A stretch of DNA of 57,312 nucleotides from a virus (taxonomy: Duplodnaviria > Caudoviricetes). Each line of letters begins with the position of its first letter. The first letter of the stretch is position 1. A model generated the notes under the pieces. That model had not been told where the DNA came from and did no database searches. It worked only from the letters and a program-made list of their open reading frames with translations. Below, in pieces: positions 6,328 through 24,508 of this stretch. The DNA lies in IMG/VR virus record IMGVR_UViG_3300046167_000369, positions 1 to 57,312 of that record, one strand, 5' to 3'. The translations under genes and the position numbers were made by a program.

Positions 6328-6553
6328 TAACCGTATACTGCTCACCGTTTACTACCATCGTATGACCTGCCCTTGAGTCATAGAATATAGTGTCCCCGGA
6401 TGATATAACATCAACATCAGTCCCTGACTGTGCAACGACAGCCTTCTTGTAACGTATGTCAGCTACATCACTTGCAGATAACAACAGACCTGAGTCCGTC
6501 TTTATCTCTTCCCTTATCTCTTTTACTAGAATGTATTTTCCAATTGGTCTCAT
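6296..6553 (-). CDS. groES: Co-chaperonin GroES
   Basis: MRPIGKYILVK, mobile loop KTDSGLLL, SGDTIFY, IIERDVV; ATGA overlap with groEL. Confidence 0.9.
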   Translation of the reverse strand: MRPIGKYILVKEIREEIKTDSGLLLSASDVADIRYKKAVVAQSGTDVDVISSGDTIFYDSRAGHTMVVNGEQYTVIIERDVVVVE

Positions 6554-8127
6554 TTGTCCTCGTATGTTCGTGCCATTGTAATAATAGCGTTAGTAGATAG
6601 TAGAGTTACCGCAACAGACACAGCGTTCTGTAGGGCGCATTTAGTGACCTTCATAGGGTCGATCACACCCATCTTATACATATCACCCCACTCGTTTGTT
6701 TTAACGTTGTATCCGTGGCTAAAATCGCCTCTGTTGTCGACATTCTCCATAGATGGTATCCCTGCGTTGTCACATATCTGAACAAATGGAGCGCGTAGCG
6801 CTCGCGACAAAATTTTACCGGCAGCACTGTTGTCCATATTTTCAACCGCCTTTACTAAGGCTGTTCCACCACCTGGAAGTATTCCCTCCTCCAAGGCTGA
6901 ACGTACAGCACATACCGCATCGTCAACACGATCGTACAACTCCTTTTGCTCAAGGTCAGTCTTTCCACCTACGTAGATTACACCAACACCACCGGTGAGA
7001 GATGCAATACGTGACAGGATGAACTCCTTGTCGTGCTTCTTCTTTGTTATCTTCAATGCCTCACGTAGCTGTGATACCCTCTCAGCAATCTCAGGAGTGG
7101 TCTCAACCTCGTCCTTAACAATCACAGTTGACTCAGCATTCACGATAACCTTCGAGCAGTGACCAAGGTCGCTAAGTGTCATAAGCGATAAGTCATCACC
7201 AGTCTTCTCACTGAAGTAGGTAGCACCAACACTAACCGCAATGTCCTGCATTAGTTCGTGCTGCTTGTAGCCAAACGATGGCGGTCCAATAGTACACAGC
7301 TTAAGGTTGCTCTTCATTACATTCGCAGCCAACGTATTCACAACGTTAGTTGACGTAGGTGCGATAATCAATAATCTCTTCTGCTCCTGGATGATTGGTT
7401 TCAATACGTTCTCGATGCTCAAGATGTTCTCGATAGGCGCATCACTAACAAGTACGTAGCAGTCCTCGAGTATACACTCGTCCTTCTTCTGGTCGTTGAT
7501 GAACAACGGTGACTCATACCCACGCTCAATCTTTAACCCCTGTGTGGTCTCGAAGTATGTGTCCGAACTCTGTGACTTGTCAACGGTAACGATACCGTCC
7601 TTGCCAACCTTCTTGTATACACTAGCAATGATGTTACCCAAAGCCTCGTCATTGTTTGCCGAAATAGTAGCAACGTCCTTCAAGGTCTTGTTGGTTACCT
7701 TCTTCGCCTTGGACTTTAATTCAGATATAATAAACTCAGTCTTACTAACCAAGTCACGCAACACCTCAGTCTTGTTAGCCGAGTTAGTAATCTCTGCACC
7801 CGCATTGATCAACGCCTCGGTTAAAACAATAGCAGTAGTTGTACCATCACCCGCCTGCGCAGCAGTGCGCTCAGATGCCTGCTTCATTATACGGACCGCT
7901 AAGTTCTCAGTAGGGTCGAGTAACGATACCGCCTTGGCGACAGTTACACCATCCTTGGTTACAGTTATTCCGTGTGTGTGATTCGGTGATTCAATCAGAA
8001 CAGTTTGACCCGAAGGTCCTAAAGTTGATTTGACAGCAGAAGCAATCTTCTCTATTCCACTGTAAAGTTTCTTTCTACCTTCATCATCGAAGTGAAGGTT
8101 CTTTGGTGAGTATCCAATCTCAGACAT
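6550..8127 (-). CDS. groEL: Phage chaperonin GroEL
   Basis: TLGPSG, VTKDGVTVAK, AGDGTTTA, EEGILPGGG, GVIDPMKV; no GGM tail. Confidence 0.96.
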   Translation of the reverse strand: MSEIGYSPKNLHFDDEGRKKLYSGIEKIASAVKSTLGPSGQTVLIESPNHTHGITVTKDGVTVAKAVSLLDPTENLAVRIMKQASERTAAQAGDGTTTAIVLTEALINAGAEITNSANKTEVLRDLVSKTEFIISELKSKAKKVTNKTLKDVATISANNDEALGNIIASVYKKVGKDGIVTVDKSQSSDTYFETTQGLKIERGYESPLFINDQKKDECILEDCYVLVSDAPIENILSIENVLKPIIQEQKRLLIIAPTSTNVVNTLAANVMKSNLKLCTIGPPSFGYKQHELMQDIAVSVGATYFSEKTGDDLSLMTLSDLGHCSKVIVNAESTVIVKDEVETTPEIAERVSQLREALKITKKKHDKEFILSRIASLTGGVGVIYVGGKTDLEQKELYDRVDDAVCAVRSALEEGILPGGGTALVKAVENMDNSAAGKILSRALRAPFVQICDNAGIPSMENVDNRGDFSHGYNVKTNEWGDMYKMGVIDPMKVTKCALQNAVSVAVTLLSTNAIITMARTYEDK

Positions 8128-8150
8128 AATTAATTTAATTTAAGTTTCAG

Positions 8151-8158
8151 CAAATATA
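8151..8158 (-). promoter_or_regulatory. -7 promoter box TATATTTG for groEL-groES
   Basis: TAnnTTTG 23 nt before the groEL ATG. Confidence 0.65.
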
Positions 8159-8178
8159 ACAATTATATTACTAACTCA

Positions 8179-8368
8179 CAAATGTCAAATGTCAAAATTA
8201 AACTTCCCTATACTACTACTACTACTTTCTTCTTCTTTATTTATACTATCTATGATAGACTTTTTTTTAACATTTTCAACATAAAATAAATAATAGAATG
8301 ATAATCAGTAAGTTACAAAAAAATAATCAACATAAAATCAACACCAAAAAAAACAATTGTGTCGATTA
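8179..8368. repeat. Origin-like element, copy A (diverged direct repeat of 18508..18665)
   Basis: Shares CAAATGT, CCCTATACTACT, TGATAATCARTAAGTTA and an exact 23-mer AATAATCAACATAAAATCAACAC (8322-8344), in the same order. Confidence 0.75.
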
Positions 8369-8383
8369 TTAAAATAATCAAAC

Positions 8384-8418
8384 AAAAAAAGAGGAAAACC
8401 TAAATGATCCTCCTCTCA
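8384..8418 (-). terminator. Intrinsic terminator after 8444..8638
   Basis: Minus strand AGAGGAGGATC-ATTTA-GGTTTTCCTCT followed by a T run. Confidence 0.6.
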
Positions 8419-8443
8419 ATTTTTCCGAATGACAATTGGTAAA

Positions 8444-8638
8444 CTACATTCTGTAGAAGCTTTTCTTGTTCTCAGCCAACTCAATTCCGTCAGCAATCAT
8501 ATTAACTTTCTTCGCTCGGTGTAATGTCTTACGAACATTTGCCGCCTGCTGAATACCAGATACGCCACAAGGTCTGTCATTGATTAATCGACCATCCTTG
8601 ACAGTCAATCCTCCCATACTCTTATACTTCATATCCAT
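8444..8638 (-). CDS. Hypothetical protein, 64 aa, monocistronic
   Basis: Own promoter (8655-8662) and terminator. Confidence 0.7.
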   Translation of the reverse strand: MDMKYKSMGGLTVKDGRLINDRPCGVSGIQQAANVRKTLHRAKKVNMIADGIELAENKKSFYRM

Positions 8639-8654
8639 AACTTATTTGTTTATA

Positions 8655-8662
8655 CAAAGATA
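8655..8662 (-). promoter_or_regulatory. -7 promoter box TATCTTTG
   Basis: TAnnTTTG 16 nt before the ATG. Confidence 0.65.
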
Positions 8663-8688
8663 AAAATATATTTAGACACATATAGTAT

Positions 8689-9065
8689 TTGGGTTCTATA
8701 GCATTTTACGCAAAGCCGCCCAAAACTAAAACCGATTTTTTTCTTGGGGGTGGGGTTCCAATCCCAATGGCCGCATCCCGATTTTTTTGGCTTTTTGTAT
8801 ACCAGGGTATCTACTACGGTCTCTCCAGGGTAATGATGTTTTCCTGGAGCGCGTCCTGCGCTCCCTATGTCCCCTGTTCACGCATCCCGTTATACCTGTT
8901 GCCCCATCTCCCGACCGCATTGCTACGGATATACAAAGCAAATGCATTGTAAAAGGCACAGAGAGATGCCCTTAATCCCCCCCCGAAATGAAATAAACGC
9001 AAATGATTTGCGGTAATTAGAAAAAAAAGTTTCGCTCTGAAACCCAGGCTGGGCAAGGGATTGAG
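8689..9065. other. GC-richer non-coding region at the strand switch; candidate genome terminus / packaging region
   Basis: G/C runs (GGGGGTGGGG, C8), no convincing ORF, perfect palindrome CGCAAAT-G-ATTTGCG at 8998-9012; lies between divergent promoters. Confidence 0.45.
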
Positions 9066-9083
9066 AAGATGTTGAATTTTTTT

Positions 9084-9126
9084 TTAGACAAAAATTGTAC
9101 AGAAGTCAAAAAGATTACTAACTTTG
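9084..9126 (+). promoter_or_regulatory. Major early promoter (-33 TTG, -7 TAACTTTG)
   Basis: TTAGACA-aaaa-TTGTAC...TAACTTTG at the head of the + arm. Confidence 0.7.
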
Positions 9127-9188
9127 TAGTGCCAACGGGCAATATATATAACAATAAAACAAGTTAAAGTACTGAAAATCAACAAGTT

Positions 9189-9368
9189 ATGAAAAAAGAA
9201 ACAACACAAAACACTGAGAATCAAGCAGTTAGCGGAATGGATAAACTAATAGCATTTAGTGATTACCTTGAGAAAATAGGATACAGTCTTGAAGGGATTA
9301 GCTTTCAAAATGCCGTGTCACTACGGATAGATGTTGAAAAGGTAATATCAGAAAAACTAACAAAATAA
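9189..9368 (+). CDS. First early protein, 59 aa (not in the ORF track)
   Basis: MKKETTQNTENQAVSGMDKLIAFSDYLEKIGYSLEG...VISEKLTK; stop lies 5 nt before repeat copy 1. Confidence 0.7.
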   Translation: MKKETTQNTENQAVSGMDKLIAFSDYLEKIGYSLEGISFQNAVSLRIDVEKVISEKLTK

Positions 9369-9373
9369 GTATA

Positions 9374-9398
9374 AACAAGGGGAGCGCAATGCTCCCCA
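9374..9398 (+). repeat. 25-bp intergenic hairpin repeat, copy 1
   Basis: AACAAGGGGAGCGCAATGCTCCCCA; stem GGGGAGC/GCTCCCC, loop GCAAT. Confidence 0.97.
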
Positions 9399-9412
9399 TA
9401 AAAACAATAACT

Positions 9413-9799
9413 ATGAACACAAACGAAAAAATTCACAAAGCATTTAATAACAGAGAAACAATTGAAGTTGAAAACATTTTTAAACCAAACACAATGAAAC
9501 AATCAATCAAGGAAGAACTACTATCGCACATTGAAGACTGCAAGAACGATTTTGAACAAGTAAGTCATTTCAATATGTTCAACGAGGACTATTACCTAAT
9601 CGGTTATAATAATTGCAACGAATGGTTAAAGAAACACGATATAGGTGTGTTTGAAGGTGTAAACATTTGCAAAGATTTTGAACGTGATAACTACGGAGAA
9701 GTTCAAACGGATTTCGATAACTCTGAAAAATTAGTAAACAATTTGGTCTATTGGTATGGATTAGAATTGTGTAACGAATTAGGAATTGAATTAGATTAA
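9413..9799 (+). CDS. Early hypothetical protein; N-terminal 25 aa shared with the 10470 gene; possible internal start at 9494
   Basis: ORF fills the space between repeats 1 and 2. Confidence 0.8.
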   Translation: MNTNEKIHKAFNNRETIEVENIFKPNTMKQSIKEELLSHIEDCKNDFEQVSHFNMFNEDYYLIGYNNCNEWLKKHDIGVFEGVNICKDFERDNYGEVQTDFDNSEKLVNNLVYWYGLELCNELGIELD

Positions 9800-9802
9800 T
9801 TA

Positions 9803-9827
9803 AACAAGGGGAGCGCAATGCTCCCCA
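9803..9827 (+). repeat. 25-bp hairpin repeat, copy 2
   Basis: Identical to copy 1. Confidence 0.97.
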
Positions 9828-9842
9828 CAAAACCAAATAACT

Positions 9843-10136
9843 ATGAAGTACGCAAGAAAATGTGACATAACAAATGAGCCAATGAATGAGGGTTACTGCA
9901 TTCAAGATGGTGTAATGTATATTAAATACGAAGATGATTTCATAAAGCATTTAAGAGACGTTGAGAAGGAAGACAACTCCGAATATGATAAAGATGTTTC
10001 AGAGGGTAGATTAACCGATGACTGCTTAATAAATGATTACTATGAAGCTGACTATTACTATTGGACAGAATGGGAAGATGAATCAGAATACCAATACGAA
10101 ATTATAAATGGTACACTAACTTTAATAGAAGATTAA
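9843..10136 (+). CDS. Acidic early hypothetical protein, 97 aa
   Basis: ORF fills the space between repeats 2 and 3; rich in D/E/Y. Confidence 0.8.
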   Translation: MKYARKCDITNEPMNEGYCIQDGVMYIKYEDDFIKHLRDVEKEDNSEYDKDVSEGRLTDDCLINDYYEADYYYWTEWEDESEYQYEIINGTLTLIED

Positions 10137-10139
10137 ATT

Positions 10140-10164
10140 AACAAGGGGAGCGCAATGCTCCCCA
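10140..10164 (+). repeat. 25-bp hairpin repeat, copy 3
   Basis: Identical to copy 1. Confidence 0.97.
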
Positions 10165-10185
10165 TTTAAACCAAACACAATAACG

Positions 10186-10425
10186 ATGAACCAGGAAACG
10201 ATAAACTACTACACAGACGAATTGAAGAGATTCAAAAACGTATCAAGCAAGAAAGCATTTCTAACGAGAAGCAAGAAGGAGGTACAAGAGTACATTAAAG
10301 ACTTGAACTGGGCATTGGATGGTCGTGGATGGCTCTACGGGGAGCGAGTACACCAGGGTCTGGTATGGGAGCAAGAAGATGAGTTAAGACTAATAGAAAA
10401 GCTATATAATAAACTAACAAAGTAA
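10186..10425 (+). CDS. Early hypothetical protein, 79 aa
   Basis: ORF fills the space between repeats 3 and 4. Confidence 0.8.
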   Translation: MNQETINYYTDELKRFKNVSSKKAFLTRSKKEVQEYIKDLNWALDGRGWLYGERVHQGLVWEQEDELRLIEKLYNKLTK

Positions 10426-10430
10426 ATATT

Positions 10431-10455
10431 AACAAGGGGAGCGCAATGCTCCCCA
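10431..10455 (+). repeat. 25-bp hairpin repeat, copy 4
   Basis: Identical to copy 1. Confidence 0.97.
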
Positions 10456-10469
10456 CAAAACCAAACACA

Positions 10470-11246
10470 ATGAACACTAACGAAAAGATCTACAAAGCAT
10501 TCAACAGCAGAGAAACGGTTGAAGTTGAAAACATCTATAAACCATACAAGGAACAAAAGACGTTATTGAGCAAAGGCAATACGAATGCCAAAACTAGCAA
10601 GAATGCAGTTGAGACATACATTTTGTACTTATCGCCGTATACGCAAAATAGCAAGAATATAAACGTTTGCCCCAAAGCAAGTAAAGGATGTGCTGCAGCT
10701 TGTTTGTTCACAGCTGGAAGAGGAAGAATGTCAAACGTTCAAAGTTCAAGAATGAACAAAACTGAGTATTACCTACACGACAAAAGTAAGTTTATCAATC
10801 AACTTGCTAAGGAGATAAAGAAAGCCATTCTGAAAGCTACTGTAAAAGGTAATGACATTGCATTCCGTTTGAACGGTACAAGTGACATTGACTTCATTTA
10901 CCTGCTAAAGAAGTATGCTGATTTCGATGCATTGAATACACCAAATAACGTACATTTCTATGACTATACTGCTATCTTAGGCAAGGCAAGAAAATACAAA
11001 GGTACAAAGTATGCCGTTACATTAAGTAGAAAGGAAGATAACCAAAGTGAGATTGATACGGCAATTGCTGAAGGTATAAATGTCTCTGTAGTATTCGCAA
11101 ATGAATTACCTGCGGAGTACAATGGCGCAAAGGTATTGGATGGCGATATGGCTGATGATTTGATGCTGACCAACAAAGGAATAGTATTGGGATTGAAGGC
11201 GAAAGGAGACGCAAAGAAAGACGAAACCGGATTCGTAGTAAGATAA
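10470..11246 (+). CDS. Phage GP88-like protein (Cys cluster, radical-SAM-like)
   Basis: NVCPKASKGCAAACL, RLNGTSDI, FYDYT, GLKAKG motifs; lies between repeats 4 and 5. Confidence 0.75.
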   Translation: MNTNEKIYKAFNSRETVEVENIYKPYKEQKTLLSKGNTNAKTSKNAVETYILYLSPYTQNSKNINVCPKASKGCAAACLFTAGRGRMSNVQSSRMNKTEYYLHDKSKFINQLAKEIKKAILKATVKGNDIAFRLNGTSDIDFIYLLKKYADFDALNTPNNVHFYDYTAILGKARKYKGTKYAVTLSRKEDNQSEIDTAIAEGINVSVVFANELPAEYNGAKVLDGDMADDLMLTNKGIVLGLKAKGDAKKDETGFVVR

Positions 11247-11251
11247 TTATT

Positions 11252-11276
11252 AACAAGGGGAGCGCAATGCTCCCCA
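11252..11276 (+). repeat. 25-bp hairpin repeat, copy 5
   Basis: Identical to copy 1. Confidence 0.97.
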
Positions 11277-11292
11277 CAAAACCAAATAAGTT

Positions 11293-11502
11293 ATGTATAC
11301 AAGAAACAACAATCAAAATGTTTATAGCATTTTTGTTAACGGAGAGTTTATAAATGGATCAGACAATTATTCATTTGCTATGAACAGAGCGCTAGGTATT
11401 GCTCTTCTTAAAGGATTAGAATTTACGAATACCAAATCAAAACTAATAATCGATAAATGGATTGGTGATGGAGAGACAGTAATAGTAACTAAAAACAAAT
11501 AA
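11293..11502 (+). CDS. Early hypothetical protein, 69 aa
   Basis: ATG 16 nt after repeat 5. Confidence 0.75.
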   Translation: MYTRNNNQNVYSIFVNGEFINGSDNYSFAMNRALGIALLKGLEFTNTKSKLIIDKWIGDGETVIVTKNK

Positions 11503-11505
11503 ATT

Positions 11506-11817
11506 ATGTATACAATAAACGACAAAATGACAGATGAAGTGGTAGTTAGATGTGACTATCTCGATGAAGCAGTTACGATCTTAGATTTGCAATTGAACTT
11601 TGAATCATATGAGATACGAAGAGTAAGTAATATGGCGGAGTTCAGAAAAGGAATCCAGTACATTGCATACGTGAAATGGTACAAAGGAATCCAAAACGAC
11701 AAGACGTACGTTAAAGAGTTCTTGAGTGAATCTCACTATCAAAATTGGGAGAACTTCATTCAGAGTAAAGGAGGAAAGGTAATAGGTATAAACAAAGTAA
11801 AAGATCAAGTATTATGA
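11506..11817 (+). CDS. Hypothetical protein, 103 aa
   Basis: Tightly packed ORF in the operon. Confidence 0.7.
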   Translation: MYTINDKMTDEVVVRCDYLDEAVTILDLQLNFESYEIRRVSNMAEFRKGIQYIAYVKWYKGIQNDKTYVKEFLSESHYQNWENFIQSKGGKVIGINKVKDQVL

Positions 11818-12009
11818 AAACAATTTTAATCACAGGCAGTATTAATCCTATCGTACACAGGCTATGGTAGTGAGGTAAATGAAACAACAACAACAACGTT
11901 TGAATACGTTAAACCAAAGAAAAGAAAGAAGAAGCACAGAAGAAAAAGAAAGTGCTACAACAGTACAATTTTAGTAGGTAATGGTAAGTATAAAAAAAGA
12001 AGGAGATAA
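11814..12009 (+). CDS. Small protein with signal-like N-terminus and K/R-rich tail, one frameshift
   Basis: Removing 1 nt near 11835 gives MKTILITAVLILSYTGYG...KPKKRKKKHRRKRKC...KKRRR. Confidence 0.45.
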
Positions 12010-12012
12010 ACT

Positions 12013-12237
12013 ATGGAAAAGTTATTAGAAGAGTATTTTGATTTAAAGGATATGTTATTGGATTACACAGATGAATTTCACGATGCGATGTTCTATGATA
12101 TCCAAGGCTATTATGAAGAGATTGATCTATCAGATGAGGAAGAATGCAAACACTATACTGAAGTACTAACGAAACAAGTTAACGCATTCAAATCAATCTT
12201 AGAGGCATACAAACAAATAGATTATACATTTTGTTAG
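12013..12237 (+). CDS. Acidic hypothetical protein, 74 aa
   Basis: ORF with an A-rich leader. Confidence 0.7.
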   Translation: MEKLLEEYFDLKDMLLDYTDEFHDAMFYDIQGYYEEIDLSDEEECKHYTEVLTKQVNAFKSILEAYKQIDYTFC

Positions 12238-12265
12238 AACGTAAATAGTTTACGATGTTGAGTCG

Positions 12266-12273
12266 TACATTTG
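12266..12273 (+). promoter_or_regulatory. -7 promoter box TACATTTG
   Basis: Intergenic TAnnTTTG. Confidence 0.55.
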
Positions 12274-12299
12274 AATAAATTAAATTAAACAAAACAATT

Positions 12300-12587
12300 A
12301 TGAAAAAGAAAATCAATCAAGTACAAGCAATGGGAACAATAATTTCTAAGAAGGACGGTAAGTTCTTTGGTGTAAAGTTCATCAAGAAAGATGGAACAAT
12401 TCGTAAGATGTCCTGCAAGAGAGTAGTAAAGAAAGAGATTAACGGCAAGGGAATGTCTTACAATCCATTGGAGAAAGGTTTGATTCCTGTATACGATTTG
12501 AATAAGAAAGGCTATCGAACAATAAACTTAGCCACGATAATCGAATTGAATATGGATGGAGTAAACTACGATGTGATAAACAATTAG
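12300..12587 (+). CDS. SH3/WYL-like beta-barrel phage protein
   Basis: FFGVKFIKKDGTIRKM...VYDLNKKGYRTINL pattern. Confidence 0.6.
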   Translation: MKKKINQVQAMGTIISKKDGKFFGVKFIKKDGTIRKMSCKRVVKKEINGKGMSYNPLEKGLIPVYDLNKKGYRTINLATIIELNMDGVNYDVINN

Positions 12588-12628
12588 ACATTATTTGTAC
12601 GTTAATCAAAAAACATTTATTATATTCA
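12584..12628 (+). promoter_or_regulatory. Second copy of the extended early promoter motif
   Basis: TTAGACA-n4-TTGTAC-n5-TCAAAAA as at 9084; variant -7 box TATATTCA. Confidence 0.55.
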
Positions 12629-12643
12629 CAAAAAAATAAAGCT

Positions 12644-12955
12644 ATGACAATTTACATTTTATTTAACCCAACAGGAACAATAGTAAGATCAACAAGTTCG
12701 TTGGACGATGCAACAATTTGGAAGGCAACAAGAGGAACTTATATGGAGGTATACCACTGCAATTCCAGGGACCTGGGGACATACAAATCTGATGATGAAG
12801 TATGGATAGGCAATGGATTCGGTGAAGAACTTTACTCAGTTGATACGGATGGAAAGATTGATGGAGTAGATATCGATTCGATTAACCTAACGAAAGACTT
12901 TCACAACGAAGTTTTACAGGCAAAAAAAATGGAGGGAAACCACGCCCTCCATTAA
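12644..12955 (+). CDS. Hypothetical protein, 103 aa
   Basis: ORF downstream of the promoter; its 3' end overlaps an antisense terminator. Confidence 0.7.
   Translation: MTIYILFNPTGTIVRSTSSLDDATIWKATRGTYMEVYHCNSRDLGTYKSDDEVWIGNGFGEELYSVDTDGKIDGVDIDSINLTKDFHNEVLQAKKMEGNHALH
12922..12953 (-). terminator. Intrinsic terminator on the minus strand
   Basis: TGGAGGG/CCCTCCA stem followed by T8 on the minus strand. Confidence 0.7.
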
Positions 12956-13030
12956 ACCTAATAACAATAAACCTTTAAGAAACTAAGGGAACATAAATAA
13001 ATAAATAATTTAATCTGCTCTCGTTAGCAG
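12922..13030 (-). ncRNA. Candidate ~110-nt antisense small RNA
   Basis: Minus-strand TATATTTG at 13041..13034, 5' hairpin CTGCT-AACGAG-AGCAG, terminator at the 3' end; no ORF. Confidence 0.5.
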
Positions 13031-13060
13031 GTACAAATATAACTAAAAAAACAATAAACT

Positions 13061-13582
13061 ATGCAACAAGTAATAATAGATTTCGGAGGATTTTATGGAT
13101 CACTTCACGAAGCATTCATCGAAGATGCGATGTGGGCTGATGACGATGGAGGTGAAAGCCTTACGGACAGTGATGAGAATATTGATTGGGATGCAGTCAA
13201 AGATACATATAGCGAGGCTTACTTAGACAAGCTATGTGAGTTCACTGCATTCGAGTTGGGAATGGAAAGCATTCACATAAATTACAAAGGACTTGACAGT
13301 CCAAGTTATTATAACTTCACAACAGATGTTATTATAGGTGAGATATCGGATGAACATTCACTTGAGATGATGAGTGCGATACAAAAGGACGATTCTTTCT
13401 TGGAGTACATACAGGAGAGAACAAATAGTTACGATGGATACATTTCATTATACACGTTTGATGAGGTACTTGAGAACAAGGACAATACACTTATAGAATT
13501 TACGCTTGATTTTATGGCAGGTAAGTACAACGAAGAAGAATTATTTAATGATCACTCAGAATTAATAGAAGCAATACTATGA
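13061..13582 (+). CDS. Highly acidic hypothetical protein, 173 aa
   Basis: FGGFYGSLH and SPSYYNFTTD motifs; D/E-rich. Confidence 0.75.
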   Translation: MQQVIIDFGGFYGSLHEAFIEDAMWADDDGGESLTDSDENIDWDAVKDTYSEAYLDKLCEFTAFELGMESIHINYKGLDSPSYYNFTTDVIIGEISDEHSLEMMSAIQKDDSFLEYIQERTNSYDGYISLYTFDEVLENKDNTLIEFTLDFMAGKYNEEELFNDHSELIEAIL

Positions 13583-14103
13583 AAAAGATGATAATAATAA
13601 TTGCACTTGCAGGAGCAGGATGCATAGAGGAAACAACGAGAGAGGTTGTTGATAAGCCAATTGAAACTGTGGAGATTGAGCAGGTAGTTGATACGGTTGT
13701 ACAAGATACTGTACAAGTAAAGACTATCTGGGAGCAGTTTGTTGATGCGGTTATATTTGTTGAGAGCATTGACAACGACAGTGCGTACAACCACAGAGAG
13801 AGGGCAGTAGGATGCCTACAGATTAGACCAATAATGGTACGTGAGGTGAACAGGGTTCTAAAGAAAAGCAAAATAAATCTAAGGTACACAATGGATGACA
13901 GGTGGAGCAGGGAGAAGTCCATCGAGATGTTTGAGATTATGGCTGAACAGGTTGAGTGCTGTGAGGGATTGGAGTTTATGGAGTTCTGTGAGATCGTAGC
14001 AAGGAAGTGGAATGGTGGTGGAAGAGGACACAAAAAGAAATCAACGTTAGTTTATTGGAATAAAGTGAAGAATAAATTAGGAAATGTACAACCTATAGAT
14101 TAA
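13579..14103 (+). CDS. Lysozyme-fold (SLT / i-type-like) enzyme with putative lipoprotein signal
   Basis: MKK-hydrophobic-AGAGC; IFVES, AVGCLQIRP and ARKWNGG motifs. Confidence 0.7.
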   Translation: MKKMIIIIALAGAGCIEETTREVVDKPIETVEIEQVVDTVVQDTVQVKTIWEQFVDAVIFVESIDNDSAYNHRERAVGCLQIRPIMVREVNRVLKKSKINLRYTMDDRWSREKSIEMFEIMAEQVECCEGLEFMEFCEIVARKWNGGGRGHKKKSTLVYWNKVKNKLGNVQPID

Positions 14104-14108
14104 ATTTG
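14101..14108 (+). promoter_or_regulatory. -7 promoter box TAAATTTG
   Basis: TAnnTTTG 22 nt before the ATG at 14131. Confidence 0.5.
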
Positions 14109-14130
14109 TACTAAATTAAACATAAACCAA

Positions 14131-14313
14131 ATGAAAAATAAATTGATTCATAAATTGACTTTGCTTGATGTTAGCCTATATAGAAAATCAGGGTTATCAG
14201 ATGCAGATAGTAAATATAAAAAAGAGCCGTTACATTTTAGAAGTATACTTTTCGATATTTATTCAAAACTAAGTATCGAAGATATTGAACAAATAATAAA
14301 CCTTAAAAAATAA
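14131..14313 (+). CDS. Hypothetical protein, 60 aa
   Basis: ORF in the operon. Confidence 0.6.
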   Translation: MKNKLIHKLTLLDVSLYRKSGLSDADSKYKKEPLHFRSILFDIYSKLSIEDIEQIINLKK

Positions 14314-14317
14314 CCAA

Positions 14318-14635
14318 ATGATAAAGATAACCAAAGACAATTTCGTATGGCTTGACGTAACTAAGCAGTGCGTATCACAGGTAAAGACCAAAGAATTATT
14401 TGATGCACAGGTATTGTATGAAGTATTTGACGATGATAGTGAGAGTTTGATTGAAGACCCTGTACTCGTTAAGTATGCGATACAGAGAGGATCAAGAATA
14501 TGCATCGAGGTAGGTGAACTACCAAAGAAATACCAACCTAAGGAAGTTTGGGATGGAACGGACAAGGAGTTAATAGACGGACATTGGTTCGTAAAGATGG
14601 CAAACATTTTAAACATAAAAAATGAAGACAATTAA
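14318..14635 (+). CDS. Hypothetical protein, 105 aa
   Basis: ORF in the operon. Confidence 0.7.
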   Translation: MIKITKDNFVWLDVTKQCVSQVKTKELFDAQVLYEVFDDDSESLIEDPVLVKYAIQRGSRICIEVGELPKKYQPKEVWDGTDKELIDGHWFVKMANILNIKNEDN

Positions 14636-15497
14636 AATTAAAGATAGAGAAGACAAGGTATTATTCACCCATACTTGTGACAACAACACTATCACAATAA
14701 CATTGGAGAAAGCAGTAAGTGAGGGTGCTGATTTAACAAATGCTAATTTAGAATGTGCTGATTTAGAAGGTGCTTATTTAAGAGATGCTAATTTAGAAGG
14801 TGCTGATTTAAGAGGTGCTGATTTAACAAATGCTAATTTAGAAGGTTCTTATTTAAGAAAAGCTGATTTAAGAAAAGCTGATTTAAGAGGTGCTGATTTA
14901 ACATATGCTGATTTAGAACGTGCTAATTTAACAGGTGCTGATTTATACGGTACTTATTTAAGATATGCTAATTTAGAATGTGCTGATTTAACAGATGCTG
15001 ATTTAAGAGAAGCTAATTTAACAGGTGCTAATTTAAGAGATGTTTGGTTAAGAGAAGCTAATTTAAGATATGCTGATTTAACAGGTGCTTGGTTAAAAAA
15101 TGCTGACTTAATAGATGCTCATTTAAGATATGCTAATTTAACAGATGCTGATTTAACAAATGCTAATTTAACAGGTGCTGATTTAACAGGTGCTAATTTA
15201 ACAGGTGCTGATTTAACAAATGCTGATTTAGAAGATGTTATAAATAACCCATTAAAAAAAGATCCACAAGACAAGGTAGTAACTAAAGTTATAAACTCAT
15301 TTAGAGAACGCTCAGAGCAGGGAATAAATAAATATGGTACAACCCTACAGAGAGATGACTTGAGTCCATTAGAATGGATGCAACACCTACAGGAGGAGTT
15401 GATGGATGCAACACTATACATTGAGGTATTAAAAAGTAAACTAATAAAGTTAGAAATTAAAGAAGCTGAAGACAAGGTGTCTGACGTATGTGATTAA
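14622..15497 (+). CDS. Pentapeptide-repeat protein fused to a C-terminal helical (MazG/NTP-PPase-like) domain
   Basis: About 34 A(D/N)Lxx repeats, then KYGTTLQRDDL...EWMQHLQEELMDATLY. Confidence 0.8.
   Translation: MKTIKIKDREDKVLFTHTCDNNTITITLEKAVSEGADLTNANLECADLEGAYLRDANLEGADLRGADLTNANLEGSYLRKADLRKADLRGADLTYADLERANLTGADLYGTYLRYANLECADLTDADLREANLTGANLRDVWLREANLRYADLTGAWLKNADLIDAHLRYANLTDADLTNANLTGADLTGANLTGADLTNADLEDVINNPLKKDPQDKVVTKVINSFRERSEQGINKYGTTLQRDDLSPLEWMQHLQEELMDATLYIEVLKSKLIKLEIKEAEDKVSDVCD
14727..15236 (+). repeat. 15-bp-period coding tandem repeat (GCT(G/A)ATTTAnnnnnn)
   Basis: Encodes the pentapeptide repeats. Confidence 0.9.
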
Positions 15498-15514
15498 CAA
15501 TTAAATAAAGTAAA

Positions 15515-15631
15515 ATGAAAGAAGAAAAAGAAGAAAAGGAAGACAACGTAGAAATGGGACTTGGATTAATCCAAGGAGTAATTGGATTAGGTTTATTAAT
15601 CTATGCGGTGTATGTATTATTAACAATGTAA
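15515..15631 (+). CDS. Small membrane protein, 38 aa
   Basis: MKEEKEEKEDNVEMGLGLIQGVIGLGLLIYAVYVLLTM. Confidence 0.5.
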   Translation: MKEEKEEKEDNVEMGLGLIQGVIGLGLLIYAVYVLLTM

Positions 15632-15907
15632 AACAACATCGGTATGATTAATTTATTAGAAAATATAATTGATTACTACTCAGAGGAAGAGTTCTTAAAA
15701 GCCGATGGGTTTGATGATGCCGTAATTGGAGTTGAGTTAAATTCAATGCGACTAATATATTCAATGACAAGATGTATAGAGATTCTTGTTGAGGAAGGTA
15801 TGTCAGTAGAGGACGCATTGGATCACTTCCACTACAATGTATCGTCAGCATACGTGGGAGAGAAGACTCCCATATGGTCGGATGATATGTATTATTAACA
15901 ATGTAAA
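15611..15907 (+). repeat. Exact 22-bp direct repeats TATGTATTATTAACAATGTAAA (15611-15632 and 15886-15907)
   Basis: They flank ORF 15644..15898. Confidence 0.9.
15644..15898 (+). CDS. Phage hypothetical protein, 84 aa
   Basis: LKADGFDDAVIGV...YNVSSAYVGEKTPI. Confidence 0.8.
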   Translation: MINLLENIIDYYSEEEFLKADGFDDAVIGVELNSMRLIYSMTRCIEILVEEGMSVEDALDHFHYNVSSAYVGEKTPIWSDDMYY

Positions 15908-16025
15908 TTAAATTAAATGTCAAAGTCTAAACAGACGTTCACGAGTATACGAGAGGAGCAATCCAACAACGGAGAGTTCGACATCCTATACGAAGAACAG
16001 GAACAGATGATAAAATCAAATCAAA

Positions 16026-16322
16026 ATGAAGAAAGAAATATTTAACAAGTACGTAGATAGGGTATGCCATATACTTGATATGGATGAAGATACACTATTC
16101 TCCAGAACAAAGAAAAGAGAATCCGTAGATGGAAGGCTATTGCTTTACTACCTATGCCACAAGAGAGATATGAATATAGTTTATATCCAAAAGCATATGC
16201 TAAACAAGGGTCTGAATATCAGCAGGTCATCCATATACAATGGAATAGATAGAGCAGGTCGTATGATAAGTGGTGACAAGGACTACAAGAAAACAATCAA
16301 AGATTTGCAGGATGGCATATAG
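16026..16322 (+). CDS. DnaA domain IV-like helix-turn-helix protein
   Basis: LFSRTKKRESVDGRLLLYYLC...SRSSIYNGIDR resembles the DnaA C-terminal pattern. Confidence 0.6.
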   Translation: MKKEIFNKYVDRVCHILDMDEDTLFSRTKKRESVDGRLLLYYLCHKRDMNIVYIQKHMLNKGLNISRSSIYNGIDRAGRMISGDKDYKKTIKDLQDGI

Positions 16323-16749
16323 CATAGAAGAGGTGTTCGATCAAGCAAGTAACGATAACTACGCTATATCTATGACAGGCTACAACTCTGAGTCTCATAT
16401 GGTATATGGCATAAAGATAATGAAGGACACATCCAACAACGAGATAAGGCTACTTGACACTATGAGACGTGGGGATCATTTTATTCCACTGACGAAAAAA
16501 GAAGTAGAAATATTCTTAGAAAATGGTTGGAGATATGGTGTGTATGTATTATCTTTGGACAATTATCGTACAAAGCTTGACAAGATAGAACAAAGAATAC
16601 AGAAGTGTATAGCCGAAAAGAAATCATCAAAACAAATATCAATACAAAAATCAAGTAGAGAAAGGATACTAAAGAAGTATTCAGAAATTAATCTTAAATT
16701 AAATCAATTAAATTATGGCAACAACAAAGAAAAAGCAGACAACATTTGA
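16312..16749 (+). CDS. Hypothetical protein
   Basis: Likely start MAYSIEEV; C-terminal coiled coil; contains TATCTTTG at 16550-16557. Confidence 0.7.
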   Translation: MAYSIEEVFDQASNDNYAISMTGYNSESHMVYGIKIMKDTSNNEIRLLDTMRRGDHFIPLTKKEVEIFLENGWRYGVYVLSLDNYRTKLDKIEQRIQKCIAEKKSSKQISIQKSSRERILKKYSEINLKLNQLNYGNNKEKADNI

Positions 16750-17350
16750 AAAGCTATCTGCTATCAACGTAAACAAATTCATCGAGAAGAAGAACGGATT
16801 GACATACCTGTCGTGGGCTTGGGCTTGGAGTGAGACAAAGAAGAACTGTCCAGACGCTACATACCAAGTGGGTGAGACAGAGTACGATGAGGCTACAGGC
16901 TTTATGTGTCACACAAGTGTAACTATAGATGGCGAGACATTGGAGATGTGGCTACCTGTTATGGACGGCAAGAACCAAGCGATGAAGAAAGAACCTTACA
17001 CGTACACCACACGCTACGGACAGAAGGAAGTGGCGGCAGCCACATCATTCGACATCAACAAGACACTTATGAGATGCTTGGTTAAGAACCTTGCGATGTT
17101 TGGTTTAGGTATCTACATCTATGCAGGAGAAGATATGCCTGCAACAACTACTGAAGAGGTTGCATCTGCACCTGCAAAGAAAGCTACAGGTGGTACTGAA
17201 CTAAAGGTAGGAGATCCTAAGTGGGAATCAATGGCTAAGTTCTGTAAGGAGAACAAGGCGTTGGGATACAAGAAGCTATGTGATAAGATTGAAGCCAAGT
17301 ACAAACTATCAGAGGGTGCTAAGGAAGAGATTAAAAAGATAATCAAGTAG
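16715..17350 (+). CDS. Single-strand annealing protein (Sak/Rad52-like, DUF1071-type)
   Basis: IEKKNGLTYLSWAWAW, MWLPVMD, RCLVKNLAMFGLGIYIYAGED. Confidence 0.85.
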   Translation: MATTKKKQTTFEKLSAINVNKFIEKKNGLTYLSWAWAWSETKKNCPDATYQVGETEYDEATGFMCHTSVTIDGETLEMWLPVMDGKNQAMKKEPYTYTTRYGQKEVAAATSFDINKTLMRCLVKNLAMFGLGIYIYAGEDMPATTTEEVASAPAKKATGGTELKVGDPKWESMAKFCKENKALGYKKLCDKIEAKYKLSEGAKEEIKKIIK

Positions 17351-17352
17351 CT

Positions 17353-18084
17353 ATGGAAATCACTCCCGAAAATATAGAGAAGCTAAGGGATGATGAGCAG
17401 TACTACGGTGATTTTGGTAGACAGTTTCTGTCAAACTCAGACATAGGGAAACTACTCAACGACCCGACACAGTTTCGTCAACCACAGGCTGACAACATAA
17501 ACTTCCACAAGGGTAGGTACTTCCATCAGCTAATACTGGAGCCTGAGAAGGCTGAAGAGACAGAGTTCATTGATGTGTCTTCACGCAACACGAAGGCATA
17601 CAGAGAGCAGGCAACAAGAGGTATCATTATGCTTCAGAAGGAAGGTCAGCAGATTAGAGATTGTGTAAGTGCAATGATGAGTAAGCTACCATTCTTCGAG
17701 GGTATACGCCAAGAGGGGAATGAATATGAAGTACCTGCTATCAAGGAGATAAAGGGTATGCTATGGAAGGGCAAGGCTGATATCGTTTGTTCAGATAAGT
17801 TGATTGACTTGAAGACAACGAGTAACATAGATGACTTCAAGTGGTCGGCAAGGAAGTACAACTACGACAGCCAGTGCTACATATACCAAGAGTTATTTGG
17901 TAAGCCATTGGTATTCTACACAGTAGACAAGACTGATATGAGACTTGGAATCTTTACACCAACAGAAGAATTTGTTCAGAGGGGTGAGGAGAAAGTGATC
18001 AGAGCAGTCAACGTTTACAAGAAGTTCTTTGGAGATAACGCTGAGTTCGATATCAACGAATACTTTATAGAGGACAATCTATAA
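17353..18084 (+). CDS. PD-(D/E)XK exonuclease (RecE/DUF3799-like)
   Basis: LSNSDI, KGKADIV, IDLKTT, YNYDSQCYIY; next to the SSAP. Confidence 0.85.
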   Translation: MEITPENIEKLRDDEQYYGDFGRQFLSNSDIGKLLNDPTQFRQPQADNINFHKGRYFHQLILEPEKAEETEFIDVSSRNTKAYREQATRGIIMLQKEGQQIRDCVSAMMSKLPFFEGIRQEGNEYEVPAIKEIKGMLWKGKADIVCSDKLIDLKTTSNIDDFKWSARKYNYDSQCYIYQELFGKPLVFYTVDKTDMRLGIFTPTEEFVQRGEEKVIRAVNVYKKFFGDNAEFDINEYFIEDNL

Positions 18085-18180
18085 TAAAAATATACAGGCA
18101 GTATGGGTGTGTGTTCCAATGGCTCGTAATGTTTGTAGACTATATGTATAATCAATTGGAACAAATTAAAATCAATTAAA

Positions 18181-18450
18181 ATGGCAGAAGAAAAAATCTT
18201 TGCAGACGGTTTCTTATTTAAGAGAAACGACAACGCTCCAGAATTTGTAGTAGGGAGTCAATCAATTAAGGTAGAGGAGGCAGTAGCTTTCTTGAAGGCT
18301 AACGCTAAGAACGGATGGGTAAACCTATCTATCAAGCAGTCTAAGGGTGGTAACTACTACTGTGAGTTAGATACCTGGGAGCCTAAGAAGGCAGGCAATG
18401 AACAGCCTGCTGCTCAAGCAACTAATGCTGATGCTGACTTACCATTCTAA
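18181..18450 (+). CDS. Putative single-stranded DNA-binding protein
   Basis: Short beta-rich ORF with an ADLPF C-terminus, after SSAP and exonuclease. Confidence 0.7.
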   Translation: MAEEKIFADGFLFKRNDNAPEFVVGSQSIKVEEAVAFLKANAKNGWVNLSIKQSKGGNYYCELDTWEPKKAGNEQPAAQATNADADLPF

Positions 18451-18466
18451 GTTAGACCAATCTAAT

Positions 18467-18500
18467 AAAGAGATGGGGGGCAAACGCTCCCCTCTTTTTT
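18467..18500 (+). terminator. Intrinsic terminator
   Basis: GGGGGGC-AAAC-GCTCCCC followed by TCTTTTTT. Confidence 0.75.
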
Positions 18501-18507
18501 GCCTTAT

Positions 18508-18665
18508 CAAATGTTGAAATGAAAAAAAATAATGCCCTATACTACTTTTTATATTTATTATTATTTATTTTTATTCTCCTCTATAAAGAGAAAAAAAACA
18601 ACATAATCAACACAACCACTGATAATCAATAAGTTAGCAATTAATAATCAACATAAAATCAACAC
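18508..18665. repeat. Origin-like element, copy B
   Basis: AT-rich tract, WAATCAACA iterons (18604, 18645, 18656), AATCAA-n4-TTA at 18624-18636; directly upstream of primase-helicase. Confidence 0.75.
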
Positions 18666-18668
18666 AGT

Positions 18669-21077: not shown

Positions 21078-21304
21078 AAGATAACACAGACATAGCAATG
21101 GAGAACTCCTTTAGGGTTATAATACTCGGTGAAGACTGGGGTGATATTCTAATCAGCGAGGAGCCATACTTTGCTCACGTACCAACGAAGAGGTTCCCAA
21201 GTATGAGGGACATCAATAACTTAATTGAATACTTTAAATTAAAGAAAGACTTAGATAAATGTGCAGCATTACAAAGATACATAGAGGAAAACCCGACTCA
21301 ATAA
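21074..21304 (+). CDS. Hypothetical protein, 76 aa
   Basis: ATGA overlap with the primase gene. Confidence 0.7.
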   Translation: MKDNTDIAMENSFRVIILGEDWGDILISEEPYFAHVPTKRFPSMRDINNLIEYFKLKKDLDKCAALQRYIEENPTQ

Positions 21305-22749: not shown

Positions 22750-22751
22750 AT

Positions 22752-23150: not shown

Positions 23151-23155
23151 TTTGC

Positions 23156-23163
23156 TATATTTG
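23156..23163 (+). promoter_or_regulatory. -7 promoter box TATATTTG
   Basis: Intergenic, 6 nt before the ATG (near-leaderless). Confidence 0.5.
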
Positions 23164-23169
23164 TAATAG

Positions 23170-24504: not shown

Positions 24505-24508
24505 TATA

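Follow-up and report, generated by a model that had tools for sequence, protein, structure and literature searches.

A repeated, covarying hairpin unit and shuffled gene order in the early region of a podophage

The closest known counterpart of the locus described here is the promoter-early stem-loop (PeSL) cassette of T4-type phages (Arbiol et al. 2010, PMC2839356; Comeau et al. 2014, PMC4122927). The PeSL motif lies in the space that separates a stop codon from the start codon of the following gene, is found chiefly ahead of ORFans in hyperplastic regions, and joins a strong host-type early promoter to a stem-loop that often consists of a G-run followed by a C-run (PMC2839356). For these stem-loops a terminator role was shown, and mini-circles arise by exchange between neighbouring units (PMC2839356). 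A previous sequence-only reading of the present DNA had named no analogue that it took to match the repeat, which understates the likeness: PeSLs are in most respects the same kind of thing.

The DNA analysed (the window, 57,312 nt) is a near-complete podophage, probably of a marine Bacteroidota host. Its array region has no DNA match among 50,697 phage records, and exact searches of IMG/VR with the 25-mer repeat and with its GAAT-loop variant gave 0 matches each. A looser stem pattern, which in IMG/VR retrieved 113 unrelated single-copy hairpins, was discarded as uninformative, a search for related loci with the GP88-like protein confirmed no locus, and Rfam (at gathering score) and a tRNA scan returned nothing for the window. 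In 16 seawater runs at least 64% of the phage's words are present; in the possible-RNA runs (X17-X20) just 5-10% are. The literature searched, which lies outside subscription journals, holds no description of such repeats in Bacteroidota phages.

The repeat units and the genes they separate

The 25-mer AACAAGGGGAGCGCAATGCTCCCCA occurs in five exact copies, all on the + strand (9374, 9803, 10140, 10431 and 11252), the same positions as in the sequence-only reading. The window holds no additional match with up to 3 mismatches and, since it is the whole virus record, the genome has no further copies; 100 dinucleotide-preserving shuffles yielded 0 matches (0 expected versus 5 observed). The ORF coordinates confirm that each copy lies 3-5 nt past a stop codon and 14-21 nt ahead of an ATG: for copies 1 to 5 the upstream stop codons end at 9368, 9799, 10136, 10425 and 11246, leaving gaps of 5, 3, 3, 5 and 5 nt, and the ATGs follow at 9413, 9843, 10186, 10470 and 11293, after 14, 15, 21, 14 and 16 nt. 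Copies are spaced 291-821 nt apart, with one protein gene in each interval. The features, all on the + strand, are as follows.

9119-9126, +: candidate -7 box (TAACTTTG) of a Bacteroidota-type early promoter, a consensus match from a pattern scan
9189-9368, +: first early gene, family T, 59 aa, with no hairpin upstream and no curated family
9374-9398, +: hairpin copy 1, stem 9379-9385 / 9391-9397
9413-9799, +: cassette gene C, 128 aa, phrog_10208 of unknown function, N-terminal 25 aa in common with H
9803-9827, +: hairpin copy 2, exact match and fold
9843-10136, +: cassette gene U, 97 aa, acidic, no family
10140-10164, +: hairpin copy 3, exact match and fold
10186-10425, +: cassette gene G, 79 aa, no family
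10431-10455, +: hairpin copy 4, exact match and fold
10470-11246, +: cassette gene H, 258 aa, PF17338 GP88 (E 2.6e-34) and phrog_1617 (E 1.4e-63), function unknown
11252-11276, +: hairpin copy 5, exact match and fold
11293-11502, +: last variable gene, 69 aa, with a 3-nt, hairpin-free gap to the next gene
11506-14103, +: block of conserved order A-(D)-E-(K)-F-I-J, without hairpin units, junctions overlapping or short
16715-17350, +: Sak-like single-strand annealing protein (PF06378, E 2.8e-44; phrog_659), a possible recombination partner
17353-18084, +: PDDEXK-like exonuclease adjoining Sak (PF12684, E 3.5e-17; phrog_412)

Every copy folds into a 7-bp stem with a 5-nt loop, at -15.1 to -15.9 kcal/mol (z -3.9 to -5.3); the stem reads GGGGAGC/GCTCCCC, and the whole is a perfect 19-nt hairpin.

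Concerning transcription, Bacteroidota-type promoters carry a TAnnTTTG box. Intergenic boxes of this kind stand on the + strand at 9119 and 12266 and none lies within the array; the first is 62 nt ahead of the first ATG, and no -33 TTTG with the usual spacing to it was detected. Since the next such box comes only at 12266, positions 9189-12237 are probably one operon, and it is probably the host polymerase that transcribes it; no phage RNA polymerase was found. A sigma-70 scan gave fewer sites than shuffles (15 versus 18.7), and the late operon diverges from the array. The leaders of the aligned units show no Shine-Dalgarno-like motif.

These promoter data bear on the proposal that the unit is a true PeSL equivalent, hiding an unrecognised promoter (for a phage-modified host polymerase, or for an N4-like virion RNA polymerase that reads hairpins) and making each gene its own transcription unit. 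Unit position and repetition do resemble PeSLs and the hairpin promoters of N4, and the end of the late operon, the place of the polymerase in N4, encodes a 2865-aa virion-region protein without known family. However, the TAnnTTTG box is found in no unit, yet the array has a host-type box ahead of it; each unit begins in the 3' end of a different, unrelated gene, hence there is no conserved -33/-35 region; and the 2865-aa protein has no DxDxD motif, no Pfam or PHROGs match and no solved structure below E 0.88. The hairpin promoter for a virion RNA polymerase was rejected, as this protein gives it no support, and a hidden promoter of either sort seems to us very improbable.

The genes between the repeats had been described as otherwise unrelated, which needs correcting for genes 2 and 5 (C and H), whose first 25 residues are common (22 identical) and which share 138 nt at 86% identity. 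A part of the array genes in host takeover or anti-defence is so far a proposal: five of the six have no curated family, one of these five matching just a PHROG without known function, while the sixth, PF17338 GP88, is likewise of unknown function, and Pfam, PHROGs, NCBIfam and one ESM Atlas query added no usable function to GP88 and these PHROGs. The shuffled early genes are nevertheless a reasonable hunting ground for host-takeover and counter-defence functions. As also stated before, there is no integrase or cas gene among the 56 ORFs scanned against Pfam, PHROGs or NCBIfam (a set that includes part of the small ORFs), and a Sak-like annealing protein and an exonuclease are indeed encoded.

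Conservation and covariation of the hairpin in relatives

Of at least 120 metagenome contigs that match the 19-mer, at least 15 carry the same hairpin unit in the same context, and stretches aligned over at least 100 nt are 82-99% identical between contigs and window. In an alignment of 42 units from 16 contigs, collected with a pattern that permitted uncompensated changes, all 266 stem cells are paired and two of the seven stem pairs show both-sided changes (A-U to G-C and G-C to A-U); 0 of 500 shuffles reached the observed covariation score. Orientation and position are identical in all 42 units. The loop is GCAAT in 29, GAAT in 10 and GAAA in 2, and this variability points to a structure, not to a fixed double-stranded DNA word. 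Just upstream of the hairpin AACAA is more than 90% conserved, and the 3' A is conserved too. The distance from hairpin to ATG is 15-18 nt in 24 of the 27 measurable copies, i.e. the edge of the low-structure zone (-20 to +20) described for Flavobacterium start codons (PMC6847099). It should be noted that constant spacing and flanks may stem from common descent of the copies, not from selection, and that the near-invariance of the 19-mer is partly a retrieval effect, the contigs having been found with it.

Directly 3' of the hairpin the sequence reads A(C/T)(A/T)AAACC, which is not that of an intrinsic terminator on the sense strand, and none of the 29 clade copies has a T-rich tail there. The repeat thus lacks both a sense U-tract and a TAnnTTTG box, as the sequence-only reading had stated, and the missing U-tract makes a PeSL-type terminator role unlikely on this strand. 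Read on the minus strand, a GC-rich hairpin is followed by TTGTT(A/T)A(T/A), the terminator scan lists all five copies in that orientation, and 25 of the 29 clade copies have, together with the conserved AACAA, at least 5 A within the 8 nt upstream. The hairpins could be intrinsic terminators of the antisense strand directed against stray leftward transcription, with shuffling a side effect of the repeats. Among the matches listed, unrelated DNA also uses the same 19-mer as a hairpin of the terminator type, facing either way (of 104 such metagenome copies, 57 have a T-rich tail downstream, 42 are A-rich upstream and 20 are both). We consider a role as antisense terminators quite unlikely all the same: the antisense U-tract is interrupted (UUGUU), the late operon diverges, the DNA downstream of the array offers neither a gene nor a convincing promoter on the minus strand and no minus-strand unit ends at the hairpins, the one promoter-like box on that strand in the vicinity (13041) comes with a strong terminator of its own (12953-12928), and the analogous palindrome units of MW202828.1 have a T-run on neither side.

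These analogous units belong to relatives with a palindrome of their own, different and equally invariant, and confined to the early/middle region: MW202828.1 has 14 exact copies there and 0 in its 36-kb late region. This distribution, together with a 19-mer that stays unchanged, loop included, in 29 copies whereas shared stretches differ by 2-18%, and with conserved flanks (AACAA and the 3' A), fits a site for a specific trans-acting reader, be it a repressor of translation, a stoperator-type DNA roadblock or an endoribonuclease cleaving the polycistron into single-gene mRNAs, for which both sequence and shape would matter. The relatives' palindrome also goes with one early protein family, being present in 19 of 27 loci that have this family versus 0 of 49 that lack it, an association confounded by phylogeny. 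Against such a reader stand the compensatory stem changes and the three loop variants in the same slots; moreover, no RNA-binding, nuclease or repressor family was found among the conserved neighbours, the WYL_2 gene K (Sm-like fold) is missing from 3 contigs that retain hairpins, and invariance can also come from gene conversion and from the way the contigs were retrieved. On balance we judge a specific reader unlikely.

A narrower version is a long shot, namely that hairpin words differ from clade to clade (GGGGAGC..GCTCCCC in this one, GTGTC-N6-GACAC in the relatives) and that an early protein peculiar to the clade, either an endoribonuclease or an RNA-binding protein, recognises the word and cuts or marks the early polycistron at every unit, the word being at the same time portable homology for cassette exchange. 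If true, each cassette would be a self-contained, context-independent expression unit, a natural counterpart of synthetic Csy4 operon insulators. A stem-extension test on the relatives' palindromes gives no clear answer as to RNA or DNA: contiguous extra pairs are not enriched (0.43 versus 0.47), total pairs in the flanks are slightly so (1.71 versus 1.42, sd 0.07), and there is no strand-specific G-U signal.

Two copies of the hairpin are decayed, and it is absent at some otherwise similar junctions, so it is not indispensable. Both observations would also suit a selfish, REP- or MITE-like palindromic insertion that invades A-rich leaders and plays no part in expression, with shuffling as a by-product. 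Cases of such absence are the C-P spacer of one contig (L222), which resembles a unit from which the hairpin is neatly missing, and gene A, which has a hairpin ahead of it in 5 contigs and none in 3. Identical orientation and position in 42 units, and compensatory changes that argue for selection on the stem, speak against this proposal, as does the lack of any transposase or RAYT-like gene in the scanned ORFs, and it is in our view distinctly improbable. A host repeat family was ruled out: the 19-mer occurs in 49 genome contigs of very diverse bacteria, with one copy in each.

Gene order and recombination

The gene order of the hairpin region differs in nearly every contig, while the block downstream, which has no hairpins, keeps its order. 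Across 6 contigs gene C is followed by 4 different genes, G by 4 across 4 and H by 4 across 5, and at least 5 different genes precede A across 8 contigs; within the stable block A is followed by D in 6 of 7 cases, F by I in 4 of 4 and I by J in 4 of 4, the junctions being 4-nt overlaps, 3-nt gaps or longer spacers without hairpin. Single steps of this variation can be seen: contig L221 reads G-hairpin-M-hairpin-H where the window reads G-hairpin-H, a one-unit difference, and L221 and L233 are 96.8% identical over 1680 nt, from 22 nt ahead of a hairpin, and unrelated upstream of it. In a seawater run (X10) the contig ends show different neighbours on either side of hairpins 4 and 5. These metagenome contigs offer a view of cassette shuffling in a natural population. 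Breakpoints are necessarily intergenic in any case.

Close relatives thus retain the repeat but vary in which genes stand between its copies and in what order, which supports the cassette reading at the level of pattern. The earlier proposal of a recombinase-free gene-cassette system stands as regards the pattern of shuffling; a dedicated system is a further step, for which ordinary homologous recombination between copies of a repeated regulatory sequence is the alternative. As to the hairpin being the crossover point, internal ends of long matches are enriched near it (about 20% lie within 45 nt of a hairpin centre versus 5% of positions), but there are also breakpoints within the leader, among the N-terminal codons that genes have in common, and at junctions without a hairpin. 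Insertions and deletions likewise occur at the latter: D and K are affected, and A is preceded by any of five genes, with no hairpin at three of these junctions. Neither repeat-to-repeat joints nor circles were found in three short-contig runs, whose contigs break at the repeat, and a raw-read run with 4 reads, data that could hardly have revealed either.

A proposed hairpin-leader module and its place among known systems

The explanation we tentatively favour, and to which we give somewhat less than an even chance, is that of a promoter-less RNA hairpin-leader module that stabilises or insulates early cistrons and whose repeated homology lets genes shuffle. The module would consist of a short A-rich spacer, the 7-bp GC-rich hairpin and a 15-18-nt A/C-rich leader up to the start codon, one ahead of each small early gene, all within a single early operon. 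Acting in the sense RNA, the hairpin would sit in the gap left uncovered by both the terminating and the initiating ribosome and persist as a barrier, shielding the upstream cistron from 3' exonucleases once the leader is cleaved, and, irrespective of the gene upstream, it would prevent the following gene's leader, which has no Shine-Dalgarno sequence, from pairing. As the same stretch of about 45 nt recurs before many unrelated genes, homologous recombination between copies within one genome or from co-infecting relatives could move, delete and swap genes, perhaps with the phage's Sak and exonuclease or with the host's machinery, and the outcome would be a hyperplastic early region. Hairpin and leader make a compact candidate part for operons of Flavobacteriia, where translation signals are poorly understood.

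Several known systems share single traits with these units. Integron attC arrays likewise have imperfect palindromes that bound promoter-less cassettes, but attC sites are 57-141 nt long, have extrahelical bases and require the IntI tyrosine recombinase, whereas the present hairpin is perfect over its 19 nt and the scanned ORFs include no integrase. CRISPR arrays combine short repeats with non-coding spacers of 25-50 nt and usually cas genes; the intervals here are 291-821 nt, each is a protein gene, and no cas family was found. Lambda nut sites, one or two per operon, pair a boxB hairpin with a GNRA-like pentaloop and a boxA and are read by N protein; here there are five copies, one per gene, and the GAAA variant alone has a GNRA loop. 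The stoperators of mycobacteriophages L5 and Bxb1 are also many short sites in stop-start gaps and in one orientation, yet they are asymmetric double-stranded repressor sites of temperate phages, while here the hairpin covaries and neither a repressor nor an integrase was found. Closer in setting are the RNase III sites of T7, structured elements that recur between the early genes on a polycistron made by the host polymerase and whose cleavage leaves a protective 3' hairpin. They are, however, long irregular duplexes of about two helical turns, and the stem here, of 7 bp only, is too short for RNase III.

In the REP and stem-loop mRNA stabilisers of E. coli operons, too, a stable hairpin stands between cistrons, where it could stop 3' exonucleases and give the cistrons of one polycistron different stabilities. 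REPs form families on the host chromosome, with hundreds of copies and a transposase-like RAYT of their own. Unlike them, the unit here has five copies in a phage, its 19-mer is single-copy in each bacterial contig, and it lacks the GTAG or CGTC tag given for REP/BIME elements (PMC3733652).

The likeness to PeSLs goes furthest. In both there is a repeated unit of about 50 nt from the stop of one gene to the start of the next, a stem-loop of a G-run and a C-run (here GGGGAGC/GCTCCCC, and covarying), crowding of units where small early genes without known function form a hyperplastic region, and insertions, deletions and replacements at the units between close relatives, which here occur at other junctions too. 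The units differ in that the present one has no host-type promoter and sits inside an operon, in that Shine-Dalgarno sequences are absent, as expected for a Bacteroidota host, and in that the phage is a podophage with a host of a different bacterial phylum. The PeSL idea, i.e. repeated regulatory units as seams for reshuffling dispensable early genes, is thereby extended from T4-like coliphages to podophages of marine Bacteroidota, a group unrelated to them, and to a promoter-less unit; that such a unit is a seam as well suggests that any repeated expression signal may suffice as one.

The repeat and its genome setting

The 25-mer AACAAGGGGAGCGCAATGCTCCCCA occurs on the plus strand at 9374, 9803, 10140, 10431 and 11252, and no further copy was found in the window at up to three mismatches (0 in 100 shuffles). 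As the window covers the entire virus record, with 57,312 bases and a completeness rated at 95%, these five copies are the genome's full set. Every copy starts 3-5 nt past a stop codon, leaves 14-21 nt to the next gene's ATG, and forms a hairpin with a 7-bp stem and a 5-nt loop at about -15 kcal/mol, far below shuffled controls. Pattern search and ORF list thus confirm the five mismatch-free copies and the stop and ATG spacing described in the sequence-only reading; its description of the genes as otherwise unrelated fails for array genes 2 and 5, whose residues 1-25 are identical at 22 of 25 and where the repeat reaches 138 nt at 86% identity.

The array opens a plus-strand block of small and replication genes (9189-25118, from the ORF map and family scans), in which the family scans identified:

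Sak-like annealing protein, plus-strand block
PDDEXK exonuclease, plus-strand block
Primase-helicase with a BT4734-like N-terminal domain, plus-strand block
SNF2-type helicase, plus-strand block

The minus-strand block codes for portal, terminase, virion proteins, a collagen-like fibre, holin, endolysin, GroEL and a GroES-like protein. Among the 56 window ORFs scanned for families there is no integrase, cas gene or RNA polymerase, the first two absences having already been noticed from the sequence. We infer a marine Bacteroidota host from the primase domain, which is of a Bacteroides-associated type, from the best relatives by protein (phages of Flavobacterium, Nonlabens, Polaribacter and Cellulophaga), from the unit leaders, which lack a Shine-Dalgarno (SD) motif, and from the source of the runs containing the array region, which are seawater metagenomes. 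The host-type promoter box has the consensus TAnnTTTG. A match, TAACTTTG, lies at 9119, the next intergenic plus-strand box is at 12266, and a pattern scan of the window found no box of this type inside the array; hence, the array most likely lies within a single early operon transcribed by the host polymerase.

Several other features of the genome deserve mention. The GroEL-like chaperonin (525 aa, 6550-8127, minus strand) heads the leftward operon, the product of 53335-53898 (minus strand) matches a PHROG named co-chaperonin GroES, and both proteins are annotated in the related phage MW202828.1. The late operon is closed by a 2865-aa protein (25246-33843, minus strand) with no match in Pfam, PHROG or PDB, which carries an HExxH motif (HEIFH), an EEVVAE-type repeat and a glycine-rich hydrophobic stretch; its MW202828.1 counterpart has 3859 aa and 24-27% identity in three short segments only. 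A 291-aa pentapeptide-repeat protein (14622-15497), coded by a long run of 15-nt tandem repeats, is found among the early/middle genes; DNA mimicry is possible for such proteins.

The late and early operons are separated by a 1-kb divergent region with a GC-rich block (8689-8959), the most diverged stretch among close relatives (17-20% mismatches plus indels); this divergence and the absence of codon periodicity suggest that the block is probably non-coding. It contains a hairpin (8846-8864, GGAGCGC..GCGCTCC) whose arms are similar to the stem of the repeat. A conserved 64-aa ORF (8444-8638, minus strand; region 8389-8669) shows five mismatches to one relative, all in the same codon phase; it is preceded by a TATCTTTG box and followed by a strong terminator-like hairpin (8417-8389). 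Downstream of another minus-strand box, TATATTTG at 13041, a strong terminator-like hairpin and T-run (12953-12928) lie within about 90 nt, in a spacer conserved in relatives; the pair could produce a short antisense RNA (12920-13048, minus strand) over the 3' end of the gene at 12644-12955.

Occurrence of the hairpin and gene order among relatives

No copy of the 25-mer was found in IMG/VR beyond the window. An exact match to its 19-nt hairpin, GGGGAGCGCAATGCTCCCC, is carried by at least 120 metagenome contigs, and those listed fall into two classes, 104 unrelated contigs and 15 with the context of the window. In the 104, the 19-mer is single-copy, with a T-run downstream in 57, an A-run upstream in 42 and both in 20, and represents a generic terminator-type hairpin. 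The bacterial genome set contains it in 49 contigs from very diverse bacteria (chance expectation estimated at about 4 copies), once in each, which rules out a host repeat family; terminator hairpins seem to draw from a small sequence pool. The 15 contigs among the matches listed (1.3-8.2 kb) present, as in the window, (T/A)AACAA, the hairpin, an A, an A/C-rich leader and an ATG, and are 82-99% identical to the window over aligned stretches of at least 100 nt.

The ORFs of these 15 contigs and the window, 16 in total, were clustered and every hairpin variant was marked.

Gene order in the window and four related metagenome contigs (capital letters and x, ORF clusters or genes, C being array gene 2 and H the GP88 family gene, array gene 5; hp, hairpin)
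Window: T-hp-C-hp-U-hp-G-hp-H-hp-x-A
L219: N-hp-C-hp-O-hp-B-hp-A
L221: G-hp-M-hp-H-hp-A
L259: G-hp-L-hp-H-hp-R-A
L286: U-hp-V-hp-W-Q-hp-x-hp

In every contig where it is present, the downstream block A-(D)-E-(K)-F-I-J has the same order (A is followed by D in 6/7, F by I in 4/4 and I by J in 4/4). Its junctions consist of 4-nt overlaps, 3-nt gaps or longer spacers without a hairpin, one of which has a promoter-like box. The hairpin-punctuated upstream region differs between nearly all contigs: C has four different successors in six contigs, G four in four and H four in five, and A has at least five different predecessors in eight. Compared with the window, L221 has a single additional unit of gene and hairpin between G and H. 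L221 and L233 share 1680 nt at 96.8% identity, starting 22 nt ahead of a hairpin, and are unrelated on its left side. Hairpins 4 and 5 are flanked on both sides by other genes at contig ends of one seawater run. The sequence-only reading had proposed a cassette system, to be checked in related contigs by constant repeats with variable genes, and the 16 gene orders came out in its favour.

Gene D, of 64 aa in six relatives, is split in the window (11814-12006) by a one-base frameshift near 11836, and one base is deleted at 11834/11836 in contigs from two seawater runs; the split reflects an assembly error or else a frameshift variant that occurs naturally.

Concerning breakpoints, where long matches end internally, the end is no more than 45 nt from a hairpin centre in about 20% of cases, against 5% of positions, which is an enrichment and not a rule; in any mosaic, homology must end between genes. 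Hairpin-free junctions also carry indels (D, K and three junctions before A), and some junctions resemble units minus only the hairpin. The N-terminal codons common to C and H place exchange points inside coding sequence too. Neither joints nor circles were detected in the runs of short contigs that break at the repeat and a raw-read run with four reads. We take the repeated unit to mark module exchange, and probably to promote it, via ordinary homologous recombination.

Conservation of the stem and a second palindrome

Perfect-stem hairpins in the 16 contigs have the loop GCAAT (29) or GAAT (10); two copies combine the stem GGGGGGC/GCCCCCC with a GAAA loop, one has the stem GGAGAGC/GCTCTCC, one is shortened, and two more are decayed, with 2-3 mismatches each. 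In an alignment of the 42 units with full flanks, 266 of 266 stem cells are paired and two of the seven stem pairs show two-sided changes, a covariation reached by 0/500 shuffles; the search pattern also admitted uncompensated changes, the exact match retrieved one copy per contig, and compensatory events are few. The full pairing and the compensatory changes argue that the element exists as a hairpin, in RNA or in single-stranded DNA, and speak against a double-stranded DNA word of fixed sequence. Of 27 copies in which the hairpin-to-ATG distance could be measured, 24 have 15-18 nt. It should be noted that the spacers before genes C and U in L222 and L286 contain another and longer hairpin, CCACCGCCTCGCTAT-GAAA-ATAGCGGGGATTTGGTGG, at the position of the 19-nt one in other contigs.

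In the wider family (80 loci retrieved via the Sak protein, plus GenBank MW202828.1, with a 71% identical primase), many relatives carry another repeated 16-nt palindrome, GTGTC-N6-GACAC, of which the window has none. In MW202828.1 it reads GTGTCGTTAACGACAC, with 14 exact copies in the early/middle plus-strand region (7746-19170) and none in the 36-kb late region. Seven of the 14 copies lie 16-23 nt before a start codon, comparable to the hairpin of the window; some of the others are located within ORFs, including one whose place in the primase gene is conserved. The palindrome may be the same device with another word, or it may be something else, e.g. a protein operator. The unannotated first early protein (ca. 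200 aa) is present in 19/27 loci with at least three palindromes and in 0/49 with none, an association confounded by kinship.

Role of the hairpin and relation to PeSL units

Promoter scan and flank inspection upheld the earlier observations that the repeat has no TAnnTTTG box and no sense-strand U-tract; lacking both, the unit is not a strict promoter-early stem-loop (PeSL) and probably not a terminator on the sense strand. Read on the opposite strand, the upstream flank AACAA becomes UUGUU, as would suit a rival reading, an antisense intrinsic terminator. The distances from stop codon to hairpin and from hairpin to ATG would place it just beyond the reach of both terminating and initiating ribosomes. 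A study of Flavobacterium start codons describes a low-structure zone from -20 to +20 (PMC6847099), at the edge of which the hairpin is positioned. This presumably ribosome-free location at the zone's edge favours an action in the sense RNA. A persistent intercistronic hairpin would there shield the upstream cistron following cleavage in the leader, and would keep the SD-less leader of the next gene open whatever the gene context. Other rivals to the sense-RNA role are a target of a specific reader protein, a selfish palindrome, and a promoter of unknown type; as to the last, the 2865-aa protein gives no sign of being a polymerase.

Among known systems, the PeSL of T4-type phages comes closest. 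Two reports describe it as a unit that recurs between stop and start codons in hyperplastic early regions, contains a stem-loop of a G-run and a C-run, and mediates indels and swaps (PMC2839356; PMC4122927). Unlike the PeSL, the unit presented here was found to have no host-type promoter, the defining feature of the former, and no Shine-Dalgarno site; it probably lacks sense terminator activity as well, and belongs to an unrelated phage group. In the literature searched there is no account of such repeats for Bacteroidota phages. The promoter-less, PeSL-like unit of this phage group, probably infecting Bacteroidota, is a variant of an already known kind.
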